DNA of 64,000 nt from Candidatus Poribacteria bacterium. GTDB lineage: Bacteria > Poribacteria > WGA-4E > WGA-3G. The notes under the pieces are model-generated. The model was not told the origin of the DNA and searched no databases. It saw nothing but the letters and a program-made list of their open reading frames with translations. How positions within the stretch are numbered: position 1 is the stretch's first letter; every line of letters begins with the position of its first letter. Location of the stretch: positions 4,544,001 to 4,608,000 of the forward strand of contig OZ244048.1 in NCBI GenBank assembly GCA_965215265.1, given 5' to 3'. This document shows positions 4,849-51,153 of the stretch, piece by piece. The position numbers and the translations under genes are program-made.

Positions 4849-5443
4849 CACGTCAAAGATGTCTGTAATATGCACCTTAGCACAAATCTCGCCTTTTCGT
4901 ATATCTCCGTACCGTCAACGCTTATGTAATAATAACTCGTGTGTAAATCTCGTCGGAGATGACTTAGGTTATGTCTTTAAAAATCTAAACATCAGAACCC
5001 TCCCAGTGGGTGGCAGGTAAAAGGTAATCTTCTCTCATGGACAGACAAAGAATACCTATCCTGCCACTGGCGAGATTTGTAAAGGATTTAACATAGCAGC
5101 AGCCTTTATTGGGCTCCTGTATACAAAAAAACGAGATTTGTAAAGGATTTAGTAAGACAGCAACTTGTGCCGTGCTGCAGTATACAAAAGCCTAAAAGAT
5201 ACATACGAAAAATCTAAACAGAGAAAACTTCAGACGAGATTTGTCAAGGGTATCCATTCCATCAGGTGTTGATGTGCTAAAAGATACGAAAAATCTAAAC
5301 AGAGAGAGGCTCCGACGATCTATAGATGACGAGAAAAAGGTAATCTTTTCTGTCCTCGAGGAGAGAAAAAGAATACCTATCTCGTCAGATTTGTGCGAGA
5401 TTGTATATTATATCATAGGTGCCGTGCTAAAATATACGAAAAC
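4832..5443. repeat. Modular inverted-repeat element, cluster 3, with nested hairpins at 5003-5067 and 5318-5386
   Basis: Two reverse arms, four forward arms (CGAGATTTG...TATAC(G/A)AAA) and three AATCTAAACA cores. Confidence 0.9.
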
Positions 5444-7757
5444 CTGCTTCCTCGTTCTTCTAATGGTTATCGGTTGCCAAACTGATACTCCTAAACAAGA
5501 ACCTCCTTCTCAATTCTCCATTCAGTACAAACGCGGTATAGAGGCGTTAGACATGGACAAGTTGACAGAAGCAGAAAAGGCGTTTCAGACGTGTTTACAA
5601 ATCAATGCCAACGCGCTCAATGCTCGCATGCAGTTAGCACGCATCTATATTAGACAGCAAAAATTTAACCGTGCAGAAGCGACATTAGGGGCATTAGAAA
5701 CACTACACGGAGAACACCAAAATCTCCAAGAATTGGCACAAGCCTACCTCATGCTCTCACAAATTTTTAGTTACCAGCAGCGATTTGCGGATGCCACTGC
5801 CGCGTTGACAACCGCGTTGGAATTCAATCCAATGGATACAAGCGCTCGCATGAGATTGGGATATTTCTTAGGTGCACCCCAGCAGATGCTCGTCCCTGAT
5901 CTGGCGGCATCAAAACGGCAGTTTGAAAAAGTCTTGGAACTTGAACCGAATCATCCAGAAGCGATGCTCCAACTCGGATTGGCGGAATTCAGATTAGGAG
6001 AACCGGATAAAGCCGCGAAACGTTTTACGCATCTGATCGAAAACTACGGCCGGCACGCGGGAGCTTACTACTACTTAGGTGTCTATCATCTGCGGCACGG
6101 TAACCTTGAAGCAGCCATAGATAACTTCAAAGAATCCCTCCATCTCAGACCTCGGGACCCTGAAACCCTCTGGAATCTTTGGACAGCTGCTTCCAAATTC
6201 GGCGGTTATCCAGACAACTTACCAGAGGCATTTAAAATTCGACCAAAATCAGCCGAACCGCGAATCGGTAGCACAAATCTTGATACACTGTCCCTCCCTA
6301 AATTTACCAACCTCGCTTCCGCTTTAGGCATGGACAAAGTTGATGGAGGTCGAGGTAGCGCCTGGGGTGACTACGATAAAGACGGCGATTTGGACATCGT
6401 CGCGGTCGGCACCTATCAGCCTCATGCACTTTATAGGAATAACGGTGACGGAACATTTACCGACGTTGCGGAAGACGCAGGCATAGCGGATCCGCGCGGC
6501 GGCTGGGGCTCCCTATTTGCTGATTACAATAACGACGGATACATAGATCTCTATATCACACGCGGCGGCTGGTCGGGTGCAGCGGAGAATACCCTCTACC
6601 ACAACAACGGTGACGGGACATTCACAGATGTCACCGAAATCGCAGGTGTCGCAGATCCGCAGAGCAGCTTCTGTGCCGCATGGGCAGATTACAATAATGA
6701 CGGACATATAGATCTCTATATTGCAGACGGAGTCATCGGCGACGGGGCCCCCAACGTCCTCTACCACAATAACGGCGACGGCACTTTTATAAACACCGCA
6801 GAGGCAGCCGGGGTAGCGAACCGAGGAAACTCCCTCGGCACCGCATGGGGCGATTACAATAAAGACGGACACATCGATCTGCATGTTGTCAACTTTGGAC
6901 AACAGAATGTTCTCTATCGTAATAACGGCGACGGCACCTTCACCGACGTAACACCTACCACAGGCATGGAGTTATCTATCACCGACCCTTTCGTCACCTT
7001 TTTTTTAGATGTGGATAATGATGCAGATTTGGATATTTTCATTTCAAACTCAGGTTCTTTTCAAGCATTTATCGCATGTCAACTCACAGGCACGGCTACA
7101 CACGATAGCGACCGGCAAGTGCTTTACCGCAACAACGGAGACGGCACTTTTACTGACGTAACGCGCGAATCGGGACTCTATAAAGCTTTTGGGGCAATGG
7201 GTGCCAACTTCGAAGATATTAATGGTGATGGCTATCTCGATATCTACCTCGCCACCGGCGCGCCACAAATGGGACGTTTGGAGAGAGACGCGCTCTTCCT
7301 AAACAACGGTGACGGCACCTTTACCGATGAGACCATCACTTCAGGCTTAGGCAATATCGGAAAGGGGCACGGGGTTACCTTTGGCGATGCAGATGCGGAT
7401 GGAGACGTGGATATTTACGTTTCTGTTGGCGGTGCCTTTATTGGAGATCAGTGGCACAATCTTTTTTACCATAACCCGGGTACACAAAACAATTGGATCA
7501 CGCTCAAAACAGTTGGAGTCAAAAGCAACCGGGATGGCATCGGGGCAAAAGTGACACTCACCCTTGGGAATACCAAAATTTATAGAGAAGTCAGTGGCGG
7601 GTGTGGATTTGGCTCAACCAACAGCATTCCACTTGAAATCGGGTTAGGAAAAGCGAAACAGGTAGACAGACTTGAAATCGTTTGGCCCTCCGGGCAGATC
7701 GATATATACACCCATCTCGCTCCCAATCAGCCCTACGTCCTCACTGAAGGTTTTTAG
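5424..7757 (+). CDS. Lipoprotein with TPR repeats fused to a CRTAC1/FG-GAP + ASPIC-UnbV region
   Basis: Signal MLKYTKTCFLVLLMVIG-C, TPRs, WGDYDxDGxxD and YRNNGDGTFTDV repeats, and SNRDGIGAKV. Start placed at GTG 5424; the ORF track starts at 5241, inside repeat DNA. Confidence 0.85.
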   Translation: MLKYTKTCFLVLLMVIGCQTDTPKQEPPSQFSIQYKRGIEALDMDKLTEAEKAFQTCLQINANALNARMQLARIYIRQQKFNRAEATLGALETLHGEHQNLQELAQAYLMLSQIFSYQQRFADATAALTTALEFNPMDTSARMRLGYFLGAPQQMLVPDLAASKRQFEKVLELEPNHPEAMLQLGLAEFRLGEPDKAAKRFTHLIENYGRHAGAYYYLGVYHLRHGNLEAAIDNFKESLHLRPRDPETLWNLWTAASKFGGYPDNLPEAFKIRPKSAEPRIGSTNLDTLSLPKFTNLASALGMDKVDGGRGSAWGDYDKDGDLDIVAVGTYQPHALYRNNGDGTFTDVAEDAGIADPRGGWGSLFADYNNDGYIDLYITRGGWSGAAENTLYHNNGDGTFTDVTEIAGVADPQSSFCAAWADYNNDGHIDLYIADGVIGDGAPNVLYHNNGDGTFINTAEAAGVANRGNSLGTAWGDYNKDGHIDLHVVNFGQQNVLYRNNGDGTFTDVTPTTGMELSITDPFVTFFLDVDNDADLDIFISNSGSFQAFIACQLTGTATHDSDRQVLYRNNGDGTFTDVTRESGLYKAFGAMGANFEDINGDGYLDIYLATGAPQMGRLERDALFLNNGDGTFTDETITSGLGNIGKGHGVTFGDADADGDVDIYVSVGGAFIGDQWHNLFYHNPGTQNNWITLKTVGVKSNRDGIGAKVTLTLGNTKIYREVSGGCGFGSTNSIPLEIGLGKAKQVDRLEIVWPSGQIDIYTHLAPNQPYVLTEGF

Positions 7758-8124
7758 TATACTGCAGCACAACACAAGCAGTTGTAATGTTTAATCCTTT
7801 ACAAATCTCGTTTTTTCGTCTACAGGAGCCCATTAAAGGCTGCTGCTATATTAAAACCTTTGCAAATCTCGTCGGAGTCTTTCGATGTTATGAATCTAAA
7901 CAGAAAGAGGCTCCGACGAGATTTATGCGAGGATATTCATTCTATCAGGTGTTGATGTGCTAAAAGATACGAAAAATCTAAACAGAGAGAGGCTCCGACG
8001 ATCTATAGATGACGAGAAAAAGGTAATCTTTTCTCATGGACAGAAAAAGAATACCTATCTCGTCAGATTTGTGCGAGGTTGTATACTACATCCATCAGTG
8101 ACGTGCTAAAAGATACGAAAAACC
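7749..8124. repeat. Modular inverted-repeat element, cluster 4, with nested hairpin at 8001-8064
   Basis: Two reverse arms and two forward arms. Positions 7944-8034 are identical to 5261-5351. Confidence 0.9.
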
Positions 8125-8127
8125 ACC

Positions 8128-8715
8128 TTACGTATCGCTCTCGTTGTCCGCTTCCAACAACCGACGCATCAGTTCCGAACGCACCTCCGATGGCAACGCC
8201 CGAAGCTCCGACTGCGATAACTCTTGAAGCGCCTTGACACGCTCATCGGCGCTCAGCCTTTTCACCAGTTCATCGGCACTGAGTCCTTTCACACGCTCAT
8301 CAACACTGAGTCTTTTCACTAACTCCGAAGGCGGAATTCTCTCCAAGATATCCGAACCAAATTTCTCTATTAGCTCCCTCAACTCCGCTTGCGACAAACT
8401 TTGAAGCACCTTGATATGCTCATCAGCACTGAGTCCTTTCACACGCTCATCAACACTGAGCCTTTTCACTAACTCCGAAGGCGGAATTCTCTCCAAGATA
8501 TCCGAACCAAATTTCTCTATTAGCTCCCTCAACTCCGCTTGCGACAAACTTTGAAGCACCTTGATATGCTCATCAGCACTGAGTCCTTTCGCACGCTCAT
8601 CAACACTGAGCCTTTTCACTAACTCCGAAGGCGGAATTCTCTCCAAGATATCCGAACCAAATTTCTCTATTAGCTCCCTCAACTCCGCATCGTAAAATCC
8701 TTGATGCCCCATCAT
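8128..8715 (-). CDS. Predicted nested in-frame small protein (195 aa), RpnS-like antitoxin candidate
   Basis: Internal GGAGGT (8728-8723), 7 nt, then ATG ATG in frame at codon 212 of the host gene. Confidence 0.6.
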   Translation of the reverse strand: MMGHQGFYDAELRELIEKFGSDILERIPPSELVKRLSVDERAKGLSADEHIKVLQSLSQAELRELIEKFGSDILERIPPSELVKRLSVDERVKGLSADEHIKVLQSLSQAELRELIEKFGSDILERIPPSELVKRLSVDERVKGLSADELVKRLSADERVKALQELSQSELRALPSEVRSELMRRLLEADNESDT

Positions 8716-9348
8716 ACGTAACACCTCCAGTGCACGCAGTGGACGAATCCACAACGCATAGTTAAAATACACACGCTGTTCTTCTGAAACAACCTGCTCA
8801 ACAAACGAATCAAAGCCTGAAAACGACACCGTAAAAGGCAGAAGTAAATAGTTCTCACGCGCAATCTCTAGCTCATTGCACACTAATAGATGCACAGCAA
8901 ACCTCTCTGTCCACTGGTAGTGTCCAGGCTTCACCAACTCCCATTCCCCACTGGTACCCGAGAGAAACCCCCGAGGCGAACTCGCCGTCACTATCGTCAA
9001 AGTGAGCTCATCCTTTGGAACCCGCTTATCCGACAGATAAATACTGGCCCGCGCATGGATACGGGAATAGTCCCACTCATCTAACCGATCCGCTTGACTC
9101 TTGAACTCAATCAGGTTATGCGAACGGAAATACTGGCATATCGGCTCTACCGCCAGCAAGTTCGCACGCTCTGCTGCATCTTTCAACAGCACGACCACGT
9201 CTATCGTGAGCGGCAGATGGCTGACTTCCACCTCTGATTGGACAGTCAGCCCGATTTTCTCGCCGAGATGCTCGTGCATTGTCTGTTTGAAGCGTGCGTC
9301 ATAGGTAGCACGGGCATCGCGCTGTTTTTCCGCATCGGCTATCCGCAT
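8128..9348 (-). CDS. PD-(D/E)xK nuclease-fold protein (Rpn-like) with repetitive helical C-terminus
   Basis: SEVEV...TIDVVV...NLIEFKS catalytic pattern, C-terminal LSxDERVKG repeats, and SD GGAGG before the ATG. Paralogous to 48375..49298. Confidence 0.75.
   Translation of the reverse strand: MRIADAEKQRDARATYDARFKQTMHEHLGEKIGLTVQSEVEVSHLPLTIDVVVLLKDAAERANLLAVEPICQYFRSHNLIEFKSQADRLDEWDYSRIHARASIYLSDKRVPKDELTLTIVTASSPRGFLSGTSGEWELVKPGHYQWTERFAVHLLVCNELEIARENYLLLPFTVSFSGFDSFVEQVVSEEQRVYFNYALWIRPLRALEVLRMMGHQGFYDAELRELIEKFGSDILERIPPSELVKRLSVDERAKGLSADEHIKVLQSLSQAELRELIEKFGSDILERIPPSELVKRLSVDERVKGLSADEHIKVLQSLSQAELRELIEKFGSDILERIPPSELVKRLSVDERVKGLSADELVKRLSADERVKALQELSQSELRALPSEVRSELMRRLLEADNESDT
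8270..8688. repeat. Near-perfect coding tandem repeat, 150-bp (50-aa) unit, about 2.8 copies
   Basis: CTCCAAGATATCCGAACCAA recurs at 8341, 8491 and 8641. Confidence 0.97.
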
Positions 9349-9365
9349 AAACCCTCCATATTCTT

Positions 9366-9395
9366 AGTATACCATTAACTGTGTAAAGTTGTCAA
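9366..9395 (-). promoter_or_regulatory. Sigma70-type promoter of the Rpn-like gene
   Basis: TTGACA-N18-TATACT with an extended -10 TG, 17 nt upstream of the ATG. Confidence 0.8.
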
Positions 9396-9471
9396 GCACA
9401 AATTCACGCGGCCCATCTCAGGCAACGTGTGTAACCGCCTATAACCGCGCGCTAGAGGCCCAACACCCATC

Positions 9472-9518
9472 AAAAAACCCAGGGGCAGCCGCTTGTGAGG
9501 TAGCTGCCCCTAGTTTTT
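9472..9518. terminator. Intrinsic terminator (bidirectional shape)
   Basis: A-tract, stem AGGGGCAGC/GCTGCCCCT, T-tract. Homologous to 49414-49458. Confidence 0.8.
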
Positions 9519-9581
9519 GTGATGTGTGGGGTTGTTACTACGGGCTCATCAATTCCTATATGCTGAAAAAAAACGCCGCAT

Positions 9582-10334
9582 CTAACGAATTGCGGTACCC
9601 AATATGAGATCGTAGCCAATGGCATCCATCAAGGAAATGAGCACATTCCCATCAATCCTATCGACGAGATGATCGAGTCTACCGCGATCGAAAAGCGTGC
9701 CGGCAACTGGTTCTTTTTCCGTAATTAAGATGATAAGTTGCATCGCTGCACCTGAAATCAAGGGAACTGTGAGATTATCATCAACGCGAAGCGGAAGAAG
9801 TTCAACGATAGTTGCAACGGATGCTCCAACCAGTGCAACAACGAGACTTGAGAATTCAGGCTGCAACTGCACACCGCTGTCGAAAAGGAACGAGAAAAAA
9901 AAGATCGCCGTCGCAGTGCAAACGATAAAACAGGCAGCACTCCCTTCTAAACTCTTCTGACCGGTGAGTTTCATCCTGCCCCACATTTTACCTACCAACG
10001 CCGCCGAAGTATCCCCCAAAACCATGAAGAAAATGCAGACAATTGCAGGCTGCTTATAAAAAAAGAAAATGCACAACAGCGTGCTGATGAGATAGTAAGT
10101 TGCACCGGTAATAGCACCTTGGCGTTCATGTGTCCGAAGGAGCGGCATCAGTGCAGTAAAAAAAAACGCCCTGAAATGCGGCGATAGCCATTTCGCGAGT
10201 TCAACGGCTATCGCCACACCTGTCAAAATACACACAAAAAACAGTATCGTCGGTTTATCCATAAAGAGATAAACAACCGGGACGATTAAACCTGCCAGAT
10301 GAATGCTTTTCCGACGTAACTCTTCCTTCATCAA
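9582..10334 (-). CDS. CTP-dependent polyprenol/diacylglycerol kinase (dolichol/phytol kinase family) membrane protein
   Basis: EELRRKSIH, GDTSAALVGK.WG, KSLEGS and DDNLTVPL motifs. Confidence 0.85.
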   Translation of the reverse strand: MMKEELRRKSIHLAGLIVPVVYLFMDKPTILFFVCILTGVAIAVELAKWLSPHFRAFFFTALMPLLRTHERQGAITGATYYLISTLLCIFFFYKQPAIVCIFFMVLGDTSAALVGKMWGRMKLTGQKSLEGSAACFIVCTATAIFFFSFLFDSGVQLQPEFSSLVVALVGASVATIVELLPLRVDDNLTVPLISGAAMQLIILITEKEPVAGTLFDRGRLDHLVDRIDGNVLISLMDAIGYDLILGTAIR

Positions 10335-48374: not shown

Positions 48375-48653
48375 CTACGTGTCGGTGTGGTTGTCAGCTG
48401 CCTCCAGCTGCCGCACGAGTTCTGCACGCAGCGCCGGAGATAAATGAAGTCCGGCTAACCGCTCATCGGGAGTGAGTCCTTTGACGCGCTCATCGGCACT
48501 TAGGCGTGCTAACATATCGGTGCGTTCTTGAGGGCTCAAGCGGGACAGCATGTCCGCACGCTCCTCCGATGTCAGTGCAGACAGCAGCTTCGGACCTAAA
48601 GTCGTCGCAACTTCGCGAAGACGACTCTGAAAGAAATCTTGACGGCCTTCCAT
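48375..48653 (-). CDS. Predicted nested in-frame small protein (92 aa), RpnS-like antitoxin candidate
   Basis: Internal GGAGGAGGT (48669-48661), 7 nt, then ATG in frame at codon 216. Confidence 0.6.
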   Translation of the reverse strand: MEGRQDFFQSRLREVATTLGPKLLSALTSEERADMLSRLSPQERTDMLARLSADERVKGLTPDERLAGLHLSPALRAELVRQLEAADNHTDT

Positions 48654-49298
48654 TTCACAAACCTCCTCCGTGACTTCCGGCTGCAAATACAACGCGGAGT
48701 CAAAATATAACGTATTCTCTTCCGTTATCACCCGCCGCAGGAACGCACGAAACTGTTTCTGCGACGACGCAAACAGCAGCAACCAATAATTCGGCTCAAC
48801 CACCTCCACTTCATTGCAAACCAACAGATGCACCGGCACGCCATCCATCAACCGATAATGCCCTGCCGCCAATGGCTCCCACGGCTCCCCAAAAGGCGGA
48901 CGGGAGAGCAGTGCCCGCGGCTTCCGAGACGACACTATCGTCAAGGTAACCTCCGTGTCTGGCACCTTATGCGCTGCGAGATAACCACGCGCACGCATAC
49001 AAATCCGGTGATACGCCGAGGCATTCAACGGATCGTTCTGCCCTTTGAATTCGAACAGATTATACGTCCGTAAGTAAGAGAGCAGCGGGTGCGCACGCAC
49101 TCTCGTGCGTGCCGCCGCGCTTTCGAGGAGAGCGAGTGCATCTATACGCTGCGGCAACCGGTTGACTTCTATCTCTGTCTGGATAGAGGCACCCAGCCCA
49201 GAGAACAGCAGGGCGAGGAACTCTTTGAAGAAAGGGTCCCAAAACTGCCGTTTGCTTTGTGTTTGTTTGGATGTCTCTGGTGCCGTAGTTTGCCTCAT
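48375..49298 (-). CDS. PD-(D/E)xK nuclease-fold protein (Rpn-like), paralog of 8128..9348
   Basis: TEIEV...RIDALAL...NLFEFKG, the shared VHLLVCNE motif, and C-terminal LSxxER repeats. Confidence 0.75.
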   Translation of the reverse strand: MRQTTAPETSKQTQSKRQFWDPFFKEFLALLFSGLGASIQTEIEVNRLPQRIDALALLESAAARTRVRAHPLLSYLRTYNLFEFKGQNDPLNASAYHRICMRARGYLAAHKVPDTEVTLTIVSSRKPRALLSRPPFGEPWEPLAAGHYRLMDGVPVHLLVCNEVEVVEPNYWLLLFASSQKQFRAFLRRVITEENTLYFDSALYLQPEVTEEVCEMEGRQDFFQSRLREVATTLGPKLLSALTSEERADMLSRLSPQERTDMLARLSADERVKGLTPDERLAGLHLSPALRAELVRQLEAADNHTDT

Positions 49299-49508: not shown

Positions 49509-51153
49509 TTAATTTGCCAGAGGCGAGATATCCGACACTTGCGTATCACTGAGATCCAGCACTCTCAAGTTCGTGAGGTTTGCCAGCGGCGTGACATCCG
49601 ACACTGGCGTACCCCCAAGATCCAACTCTTCCAAGTTGGTGGCGTATTCAAGTCCAGTCAGATTTCTAACGTCTGAGCCACTTAAATCTAGGCTTGTCAA
49701 GCCGAGCATATGTACCGAGGTCACAGCCGTCCCCGCGGAGATGTCGAGTGTCTCCTTGATTGCCGCAAGGAGCGTCTCATCCGGAATATTCACCTCGACG
49801 CTTGTATTTACAGGCACCGTCAGCGTATTCGAGGCACGGCTCAGGTTGCCCACTATGTCCATTGTGGCATCCGCTGGCACCGTTATTTCCACATCTCCGT
49901 CAAAAGCAGACGGCGGCGTGATAGTCGCTCTGTAGACTTTGAAGGCGGAACTATGTTTCACCAACCCCAGATCATCATTCGCCGGCGCAGAACCGGGATC
50001 CCGATGGTCTAAGCCGATTAACATCGGGGCTGAAACCTGCCAATCAGCCGTGGTGGTGCCTAGTGTCACCGCGGTGTCATCTACCTTGAGCGTGATGTCC
50101 GTCGCCTCGAAGCCTCGCGTGGTATCTGCAATCACACCATCAGCGTCATTTCCAATCCCATAATTGTAGAATAGGAATTCCACATCAAAGGACTCTGTCT
50201 GAGTGTCAGGTTCGGTAACAGGCGGATTGGGCTCTGCCGCTTCAAACGGTGCAAAATTCACATAGGCGGTGCGGTAACCCGTCTCAACATCATGAGTATC
50301 ATCCTTGATCAGGCCGTGGATCCTCACGCTCGCCCGGATAGTATCTATGAGATAGTTAAGACCGTCATGATCAGAAGGGGTCGGCAGCGGATGACTCCGG
50401 TCGTAAAAAATCTGCATCTTGTCATAGTAGATCCTCACATTACTCTGGTCAGTTTTCCACTTATCAGTATTGCCGGTGTTCTCGACGGGGTTCTCGACGG
50501 TAGCAGCTTTATCTATGATGAAATTATTTGCATCGTCAGAATAGGGATCCGGAGTGCGATCTATAACAACGCCATCGCCGAAAACGTCATCACCGTCTTG
50601 CACCTCGTATCTGAAATATACGACTTTATTATCGGTTCGCGCACCGGTCCTTACTGAATCATAGACGGCAGCTAGCTCAGTAGTGCCATCGGGGCGGGTG
50701 GTCTCACCGTCCATATCTAGCGCCAGGGCCGGCAGAGCGGACGTTCCATCGTGCTGGACTTTGACATCTATATCAAATGTCAACTTAAAAACGATTTCAT
50801 CTGTACTACCGAAAAATTTAACCGCTAGGCCCGTGGTGGGGTTGGAGTACCCCGGAGCAGTAAGAATGCCCGATGTATGGTTTGCTAGTAGATTCTTCCT
50901 AAAATTTCCACCCCGCTCCCAATCTGCAATTAACCGTGACCTGCTGTCCGCATAGAGCGAATCGCCTGTATGTGGACCTTCACTCTCTATCTCAACCGAC
51001 TCTAACATCGGTTTATCTGCCTGCACGGTAGCCATCGGTGCGGCTAACATCGCAATCCCGGCTATCGAAATTACAGATGAGATAAATCCGCCACTCAACA
51101 CGCAAATAAAACACTTAACATATAGAAGGGGGGGGGTGCATTCTTCTCTTCAT
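49509..51153 (-). CDS. Secreted protein with Ig-like region and C-terminal internalin-type LRRs; frameshifted at a C9 tract (candidate phase variation)
   Basis: AAGGAG then ATG at 51153, C9 at 51136-51128, and an open frame 51101..49509 with VNIPD..L.AAI...L and LTGLEYATNLEELDL..T.VSD.TPLANLTNL repeats. Confidence 0.75.

Follow-up and report, generated by a model that had tools for sequence, protein, structure and literature searches.

On the minus strand of a 64,000-nucleotide stretch from a Candidatus Poribacteria genome (contig OZ244048.1, positions 4,544,001 to 4,608,000; the whole stretch is hereafter the window) lies a gene, here called copy 1, which appears to encode two proteins from two in-frame starts: a nuclease-like protein with a repetitive tail (L) and, from a Shine-Dalgarno (SD) site and ATG situated inside the gene, the tail alone (S). 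Judging from the homologous genes, the internal start is very likely functional. With appreciably less confidence, we also consider it probable that the whole group of copy 1 relatives, an unannotated family of PD-(D/E)xK nuclease-like proteins, is built like RpnL/RpnS and operates by the same intragenic toxin-antitoxin mechanism, whereby this second step is an analogy with Rpn. The features under discussion are collected in Table 1.

Read directly on the minus strand, the junction of copy 1 (GCA CTG GAG GTG TTA CGT ATG ATG GGG) contains the GGAGGT motif and the in-frame ATG exactly as a first-pass annotation of this DNA had proposed, and the lengths of the two open reading frames (ORFs) agree with the two products which it predicted. 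According to the AlphaFold model of copy 1 (19-sequence alignment; mean predicted local distance difference test, pLDDT, of 79.4; 164 residues at 90 or above), the internal start sits at the border between the nuclease-like domain and the tail, as had likewise been claimed, since the mean pLDDT per block of 10 residues falls from 90 through 77 and 69 to 55 over residues 201-240 and the tandem repeat begins at residue 221. The paralog at 48 kb (copy 2) was said to carry the same signal in an otherwise diverged sequence. Indeed, its junction reads GGAGGAGGT TTGTGAA ATG with a 7-nt spacing equal to that of copy 1, and the two proteins are 39% identical overall (114/292).

The organism uses SD sites, as follows from the 3′ end of its 16S rRNA (...GGATCACCTCCTTTCT) and from the excess of GGAG at 4-10 nt ahead of the first start codon (612 of 2759 long frames; a control position inside the frames gave 45 of 2758). 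Within the long frames of this genome, family copies included, GGAG precedes 284 of the 14240 internal in-frame ATGs by 5-10 nt (2.0%), and GGAGG stands ahead of 76 of them. A single internal SD with ATG is thereby unremarkable by itself, and with some 2% of internal ATGs having GGAG, the case for function rests on conservation.

Conservation was examined in 78 full-length genes, of which 64 are distinct, 25 from this genome and 39 from outside (other Poribacteria, Chloroflexota/Anaerolineae and one Armatimonadota record); at 70% identity of the N-domain the distinct genes fall into 20 clusters, and at 50% into 7. The aligned start column is ATG in all 64 genes, and GGAG lies upstream of it in 62, with a gap of 9 nt in 59 cases and of 6 nt in three, which places the combination beyond chance. 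The two genes without GGAG read AAAGAGGT and AAGGATGT (GAGG or AGGA). Counted by cluster, at least one member has GGAG in 20/20 and every member in 18/20. The glutamate codon at the junction is GAG in 190 of 190 representative pairs, compared with 583 of 1392 Glu codons (42%) elsewhere in the first 50 of these genes. The codon in front of it can specify K, R, Q, S, M, L or E (AAG, AGG, CAG, TCG, ATG, CTG/TTG, GAG), and its third base is G in 60 out of 61 genes that have the 9-nt register, with AAA as the sole exception; for comparison, AAG accounts for 215 of the 649 Lys codons elsewhere in the same 50 genes.

To scan for synonymous conservation, 20 representatives were compared over 292 five-codon windows, and codon identity was scored wherever the two members of a pair had the same residue. 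Nowhere in the gene is the synonymous signal as strong as at the SD codons: the top five windows, all of which span the two SD codons, scored 0.73-0.78, the best of the other windows reached 0.57, and the median was 0.38. Moreover, the junction methionine is the only Met column conserved in 64/64 genes, and an SD-like 4-mer lies upstream of it in every one, whereas for other, partly conserved Met columns the corresponding counts are 0/24, 0/35 and 0/21. The conservation check suggested in the first-pass annotation thus came out in its favor, and the comparison shows nucleotide-level selection on the internal start signals.

Table 1. Coordinates of copy 1, copy 2 and related features (window positions unless a genome contig or locus is named)
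Feature	Position	Strand	Remarks
Copy 1, full-length ORF (L)	8128-9348	minus	406 aa, 46.6 kDa; N-terminal nuclease-like domain and helical repeat tail
N-terminal PD-(D/E)xK-type domain (by model)	8716-9348	minus	residues 1-211
Family-invariant residues	D50, 9201-9199; E81, 9108-9106; K83, 9102-9100	minus	also D17, K21, R100
Internal SD, GGAGGT	8723-8728	minus	codons L207-E208-V209
Spacer between GGAGGT and internal ATG	8722-8716	minus	7 nt
Internal in-frame ATG	8713-8715	minus	M212 (codon 212)
Nested ORF (S)	8128-8715	minus	195 aa, 22.2 kDa (predicted); all-helical tail (model); TAA stop 8130-8128
150-bp tandem repeat	8270-8688	minus	2.8 copies, 98% identical; 50-aa units from residues 221, 271, 321
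Promoter-like site, TTGACA-18-TATACT	9366-9395	minus	upstream of L start; 11/12 matches, TG before -10 box; consensus match only
GGAGGG ahead of L start ATG 9348	9357-9352	minus	
Segment containing copy 1	7751-9730		1980 bp; 53 nt at this place in same-genus genome G001
Copy 2, group C paralog	48375-49298	minus	307 aa; nested product 92 aa (predicted)
Copy 2 internal GGAGGAGGT	48669-48661	minus	
Copy 2 internal ATG	48653-48651	minus	codon 216
Type ISP genes, two, near-identical	G000:C1 ~1456990-1461825 and 3426981-3431814 (L160:7090-11925, L162:7582-12414)		1611-1612 aa

Tail genes that stand alone are also found in other genomes. At two loci, L038 (the same place as L069) and L039, a second tail ORF comes immediately behind the stop of the full-length gene, and its only possible start codon is the ATG homologous to the junction, preceded by GATGAGGAG or GAGGAGGAGGT. 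Further downstream tail copies are present in L074 (Chloroflexota) and L087, with a decayed copy in L031/L086, and orphan tails without a nuclease domain were found in L061-L065. In the L061 orphan the junction ATG is again the sole start in frame and AAGGAGGT is retained. The stand-alone tails of L038, L039 and L061 each have their own GAGGAG or AAGGAGG before the ATG. A single case, L065, has the start of the original gene joined in frame at 11 codons upstream, and its SD is degraded to AAGGAAAT. Both in L065 (G009:C45) and in L062 (G087:C68) the whole nuclease domain has been deleted, joining the original gene start to the junction region. Among the 38 genomes of the phylum with any match to the family profile, tail-only pieces (profile positions from 180 on) occur in 13 and pieces with the N-domain only in none; the N-only fragments that were listed all adjoin the remainder of a frameshifted gene. 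Survival of the tail alone is what would be expected of an antidote outliving its toxin and is also compatible with plain decay. In the Armatimonadota record (L100), the ORF at 1173-2130 matches profile positions 13-235 and then positions 203-262 again at its residues 247-302; as the junction-plus-tail segment is thereby matched twice within one ORF, it looks like an in-frame duplication including the junction.

In the N-terminal part of copy 1, which is modeled with confidence, the model contains a helix (residues 2-31), three strands (35-41, 48-54 and 77-83), a second helix (91-107) and a further strand (115-121), that is, an alpha-beta-beta-beta-alpha-beta order. Strand 2 carries D50, and strand 3 carries E81 and K83. 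Both core elements of PD-(D/E)xK enzymes, the acidic residue of strand 2 and the (D/E)xK motif of strand 3, are hence present in the model. Residues invariant in 18 divergent N-domains are D17 and K21 (both on helix 1), D50, E81, K83 and R100 (helix 2). Based on the modeled core and on the invariant D50, E81 and K83, the domain models as a PD-(D/E)xK-type nuclease fold, and the nuclease-like character attributed to it earlier is upheld on these grounds. A Foldseek search of the PDB with the whole model gave no match at E ≤ 0.001, its top rows being helical-repeat noise from the tail, and returned NucS/EndoMS with a probability of 1.00 (root-mean-square deviation 3.4 over 109 columns). The domain-level structure signal was obtained with VIA-align, and the closest PD-(D/E)xK nucleases of solved structure are McrC, NucS/EndoMS, AF1548, the small subunit of R.BspD6I and the nuclease domain of Avs3.

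Sequence searches placed the family in no named group. PF04754 did not match residues 1-211 taken alone at E values up to 10, a profile search of PDB sequences yielded nothing (best E 0.28), PHROGs gave short tail-repeat matches only, none with a passing stretch, and no relatives were found on viral contigs. A word-index search for homologues recovered 4 proteins only; the exhaustive phmmer search with residues 1-211 against 1.84 billion representatives recovered 289 proteins at E ≤ 0.001, including 44 at E ≤ 1e-10. Pfam placed no model on the N-domain in the 91 relatives scanned from the 150 listed. In the same scan the tail of one relative (P0012) matched DUF4351 (PF14261) with 25.1 bits versus a cut-off of 25, and the tails of two others matched MgtE_N; DUF4351 was found by Pfam in neither copy 1 nor copy 2. 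The likeness to the MgtE N-terminal domain (PF03448) concerns the helical repeat only, with no transporter context here. Where sources name family members at all, they are called "hypothetical protein". None of the 30 closest ESM Atlas clusters has a name, and the nearest named ones, PF04754 (16% of members, score 0.91) and DUF4351 (66%, score 0.90), are to be taken as leads only. Of what the first-pass annotation expected from profile and structure searches, the PD-(D/E)xK fold was thus supported by the model, and assignment to PF04754 or to any other Pfam or NCBIfam model was not.

The best reference for such an architecture is Rpn itself. As described by Zhong et al. 2023 (PMC10400941), Rpn genes (YhgA-like, Transposase_31, PF04754/COG5464) encode the PD-(D/E)xK nuclease RpnL together with an internally started tail protein, RpnS, which binds and blocks RpnL, and the published account of a toxic nuclease with a separately translated C-terminal inhibitor is therefore as the first-pass annotation had stated it. 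According to the same paper, Rpn is an anti-phage toxin-antitoxin with up to 26 copies per genome and no terminal repeats; its genes possess internal promoters, 4-aa repeats account for the variation of the tails, homology between copies stops at varying points, and some loci have a free-standing second small gene. The residues of E. coli RpnA that were mutated to remove the nested protein are K240, E241 and M244, and RpnA-S has a mass of 5.4 kDa (PMC10400941). The catalytic core of RpnA consists of D63, E82 and Q84, the Q84K variant being inactive (Kingston et al. 2017, PMC5350276).

The poribacterial genome also has 24 true Rpn genes (PF04754, 80-100 bits; for example G000:C1:1264782-1265867; loci L101-L110). 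Their tails consist of GIEQ/GIER/GREE 4-aa repeats in variable number, and their junction reads atGGAGGTa + 6 nt + ATG, i.e., M-E-V-x-x-M, so that the true Rpn of this genome and the new family, with its CTGGAGGTGTTACGTATG, use one start-site grammar. True Rpn is found in 131 of the 176 phylum genomes. Together, the 24 true Rpn and the 26 new-family genes amount to about 50 Rpn-type genes in 4.8 Mb, and neither family is present in the same-genus genome G001.

The two families share a PD-(D/E)xK N-domain with a variable helical tail behind it, an internal SD and ATG at the border of the two (K240, E241 and M244 of RpnA compare with K/x-E-V-x-x-M), variation in the number of tail repeats, many copies per genome with a patchy distribution, and a lack of inverted repeats and target duplications; the stand-alone tail genes downstream of some new-family copies are comparable to rpnE-ypaA. 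They differ in the catalytic core, which is D50..E81-F-K83 with an invariant K in the new family and D63..E82-x-Q84 in RpnA, in the repeat units (9-12 aa, or 50 aa in copy 1, as opposed to 4 aa in Rpn), in the length of S (59-238 aa as opposed to 85-99 aa in this genome's Rpn) and in DUF4351, seen in just the one relative mentioned above. At the level of sequence, an RpnL/RpnS-type architecture is in place: a conserved internal SD and start at the domain border, a hypervariable shared tail and separate downstream small genes. Literature searches found no paper on another nuclease family with a nested antitoxin.

The genome, a single contig of 4.83 Mb, has 26 full-length paralogs and 2 fragments. 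Group A is copy 1 alone, group B has 5 members, group C has 17 including copy 2, and group D has 3 and a fragment. All 26 tails are distinct. The 17 group-C copies have near-identical heads and tails of 92-238 aa, which are built from differing numbers of 12-aa (ADMLASLPAAER-like) and 9-aa units, while copy 1 instead triplicates a 50-aa unit. The tail, recognized as repetitive from the beginning, is therefore also variable in repeat number and elsewhere a gene in its own right. Contigs from four DNA runs break within the tandem repeat of copy 1 and are uninformative on polymorphism of repeat number. Of the 176 phylum genomes, 38 contain matches to the family profile, some of them 13-14, and the same-genus genome contains none; another 35 loci, from Candidatus Poribacteria, Anaerolineae/Chloroflexota and one Armatimonadota, were obtained by scanning species genomes with a pattern. 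In a quick tree, groups A, B and C (23 rows) formed a clade found only in this genome and group D fell among the genes of relatives, whereby the placement of copy 1 is unsure because of its long branch.

Compared with the same-genus genome, copy 1 is a single-gene indel, and it shares nothing beyond its ORF with the other copies. The junctions of the 1980-bp segment show neither inverted repeats nor a target duplication, and the ends of homology among the group-C copies vary; inverted-repeat ends and target-site duplication, the marks of an insertion sequence or transposon, were thus not found.

Several group-C and group-D copies have recurrent neighbors. In 13 of the 17 group-C cases, the copy lies 195-360 bp downstream, on the same strand, of a gene for a variable secreted leucine-rich repeat (LRR) protein of 387-1412 aa; LRR_4 was detected in 7/7 of those tested and LTD in 3, some having LTD or Big_12. 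For copy 2 this is the LRR gene at 49509-51101 (minus strand), equivalents of which stand upstream of 12 further group-C copies. The identity of the LRR flanks is 77-86%, versus ~90% for the nuclease gene, and the LRR homology occurs at shifting offsets. Two group-D copies, duplicates of one another, are located ~135 nt downstream of Type ISP restriction-modification genes with the domains Mrr_cat_2, ResIII, ISP_coupler, Eco57I and Type_ISP_C.

The neighbors of copy 1 are a gene with TPR, FG-GAP and ASPIC domains and a membrane-protein gene without a Pfam match. A 250-aa membrane-protein ORF at 9582-10334 (minus strand) matches the same-genus genome only from 9731 on; since its last ~49 codons lie within the inserted segment, the insertion may have given it a different C-terminus. 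A mosaic intergenic repeat of ~200 nt is present in two copies, 88-97% identical, at 5203-5414 and 7885-8122, which lie on either side of the FG-GAP/TPR gene and border on the 3′ end of copy 1; a ~25-fold spike of contig depth at 8008-8061 marks part of this repeat as a high-copy element. The TTG at 5241, assigned as the start of an 838-aa ORF, is probably not the true start, given its position inside the repeat.

Under the toxin-antitoxin reading, one mRNA from the promoter-like site (9395-9366) would be read from two in-frame starts. The ATG at 9348 would give L (406 aa), with the nuclease domain and the helical repeat tail, and the ATG at 8715, served by the internal GGAGGT, would give the tail alone as S (195 aa). 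Like RpnS, S would bind its partner L via the common tail and hold the nuclease inactive, and differences in repeat number and type would make the S of each paralog fit its own L only. A trigger, plausibly phage infection, would then free L to cut DNA. As in Rpn, the most plausible function of the nested product is to inhibit the full-length nuclease. Production of S in this organism, toxicity of L, binding and inhibition of L by S, and protection from phages are all points that we infer, with the defence role as the weakest link of the mechanism.

A number of observations weigh against the toxin-antitoxin reading. Distant relatives were compared at the protein level (152 representative proteins, 101 of which span the junction with at least 30 residues beyond), and Met stands at the junction column in 65 of these 101 and within 3 residues of it in 87; the junction Met is thus widespread but not universal among them. 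The RNA around the copy 1 internal start (50 nt) folds more stably than the gene average (-13.3 vs. -10.9 kcal/mol), and over 20 representatives the internal start is slightly more open (-6.8 vs. -8.7, median rank 0.30), which is a weak trend. A consensus scan of the coding strand found no sigma-70-like promoter inside copy 1. Neither of the two in-window copies was recognized by Pfam, NCBIfam or PADLOC, and no sequence link to Rpn was found. With hhalign, a 60-sequence family profile gave a probability of 0.1% versus the 24 true Rpn proteins of this genome and of 0.2-0.3% versus 53 true Rpn, whereby the Rpn profile is thin (Neff 3.6), so that very distant kinship is possible. By sequence, the family is not Rpn, and membership in Rpn, as far as the first-pass annotation implied it, had to be given up. 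PADLOC gave no matches for the neighbors of copy 1 and copy 2. When 119 of the 125 ORFs within 4 kb of all copies were scanned (three very large and three spurious ones were dropped), 9 had matches, partial and generic, and no clear defence island was found around the copies. Nor do the surroundings of copy 1, as scanned with PADLOC, look like a defence island, so that they lend the earlier defence reading no visible support. The presence of 26 copies also fits a selfish element.

The last point leads to a different reading of the same two products: L might be a selfish or recombination-promoting nuclease that spread by duplication, with S as its dominant-negative brake or needed partner subunit, and no role in defence. 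We regard this, the main rival, as rather unlikely. In its favor are the 26 copies in one genome with none in the same-genus genome, the clade of 23 copies restricted to this genome in the quick tree, the single-gene indel at copy 1, the position of 13/17 group-C copies directly behind variable LRR genes and the lack of defence-island context among the 119 neighbors. Both kinds of partner have precedents. In Tn5 transposase, the protein Inh is made from inside the transposase gene and acts as a dominant-negative brake. Cas11d is made from inside cas10d and is a needed partner subunit (PMC10400941). The likeness to these systems lies in a shorter protein, started in frame inside the gene, that modulates or completes the longer one; there is no kinship between the enzyme families, and Cas11d is a required partner rather than an inhibitor. 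Against a selfish nuclease speak the junctions of copy 1, at which no inverted ends or target duplication are visible, and the adjacency of two group-D copies to Type ISP restriction genes. The varying ends of homology between copies also count against it, having been reported likewise for Rpn, which proved to be a defence toxin-antitoxin (PMC10400941). For S as an obligatory partner subunit, the survival of tails alone with no surviving N-domain alone is awkward and suits an antidote better.

That no second product is made at all, the Met being structural and GGAG acting as an internal anti-SD site which slows the ribosome at the domain border or as another RNA-level signal, is improbable. 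The site does lie exactly at this border, inside a predicted helix (203-213), and in copy 1 it is not in open RNA. Such a role would nevertheless leave unexplained the stand-alone tail genes with the junction ATG as their only start codon, the invariance of the ATG in 64/64 genes at a fixed SD-to-ATG distance of 9 or 6 nt, and the equal grammar in the true Rpn genes of this genome, which corresponds to K240, E241 and M244 of RpnA (PMC10400941). Least credible, to the point of being negligible, is a chance co-occurrence of SD and ATG or a by-product of amino-acid conservation (E-V...M). As noted, 2% of the internal ATGs here have GGAG at the right distance, and E208 and M212 are conserved residues; this explanation is contradicted by the conservation tests, namely GAG in 190/190 pairs versus a 42% background, retention of the G before GAG in 60/61 usual-register genes across seven amino acids, and the unique top peak among 292 windows.

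The toxin-antitoxin reading bears on the question raised in Koonin's commentary (PMC10400984), whether antitoxins made within toxin genes are the tip of an iceberg, as it concerns a different, unnamed nuclease family with an Rpn-like design and 289 representative clusters at E ≤ 0.001. While Rpn itself was already known (PMC10400941), new here is the Rpn design in a different and unannotated nuclease family. The comparative evidence is unusually clean, in that the ATG is invariant, the SD is held constant at synonymous sites and the tail occurs naturally split off, and it offers a recipe for finding more cases: a unique peak of synonymous conservation at a conserved internal Met, combined with stand-alone homologues of the tail. 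A bolder and so far doubtful proposal is that the family represents a second class of intragenic toxin-antitoxin nucleases, sequence-independent of Rpn, and that the organism maintains ~50 self-locking nucleases with private repeat-coded tails, whereby the group-C copies may in addition drive recombination and diversification of the variable LRR surface-protein genes just ahead of them. For a 4.8-Mb symbiont-type genome, 50 Rpn-type genes are in any case a notable investment. If this bolder proposal is true, an antitoxin nested in its own toxin gene would be a general solution and not a peculiarity of Rpn. Confirmation of the toxin-antitoxin reading would give a function to several hundred hypothetical proteins, in each of which single-ORF annotation would be seen to miss one product, and, should experiments bear it out, the gene-within-gene antidote would be a recurrent principle of nuclease toxins.

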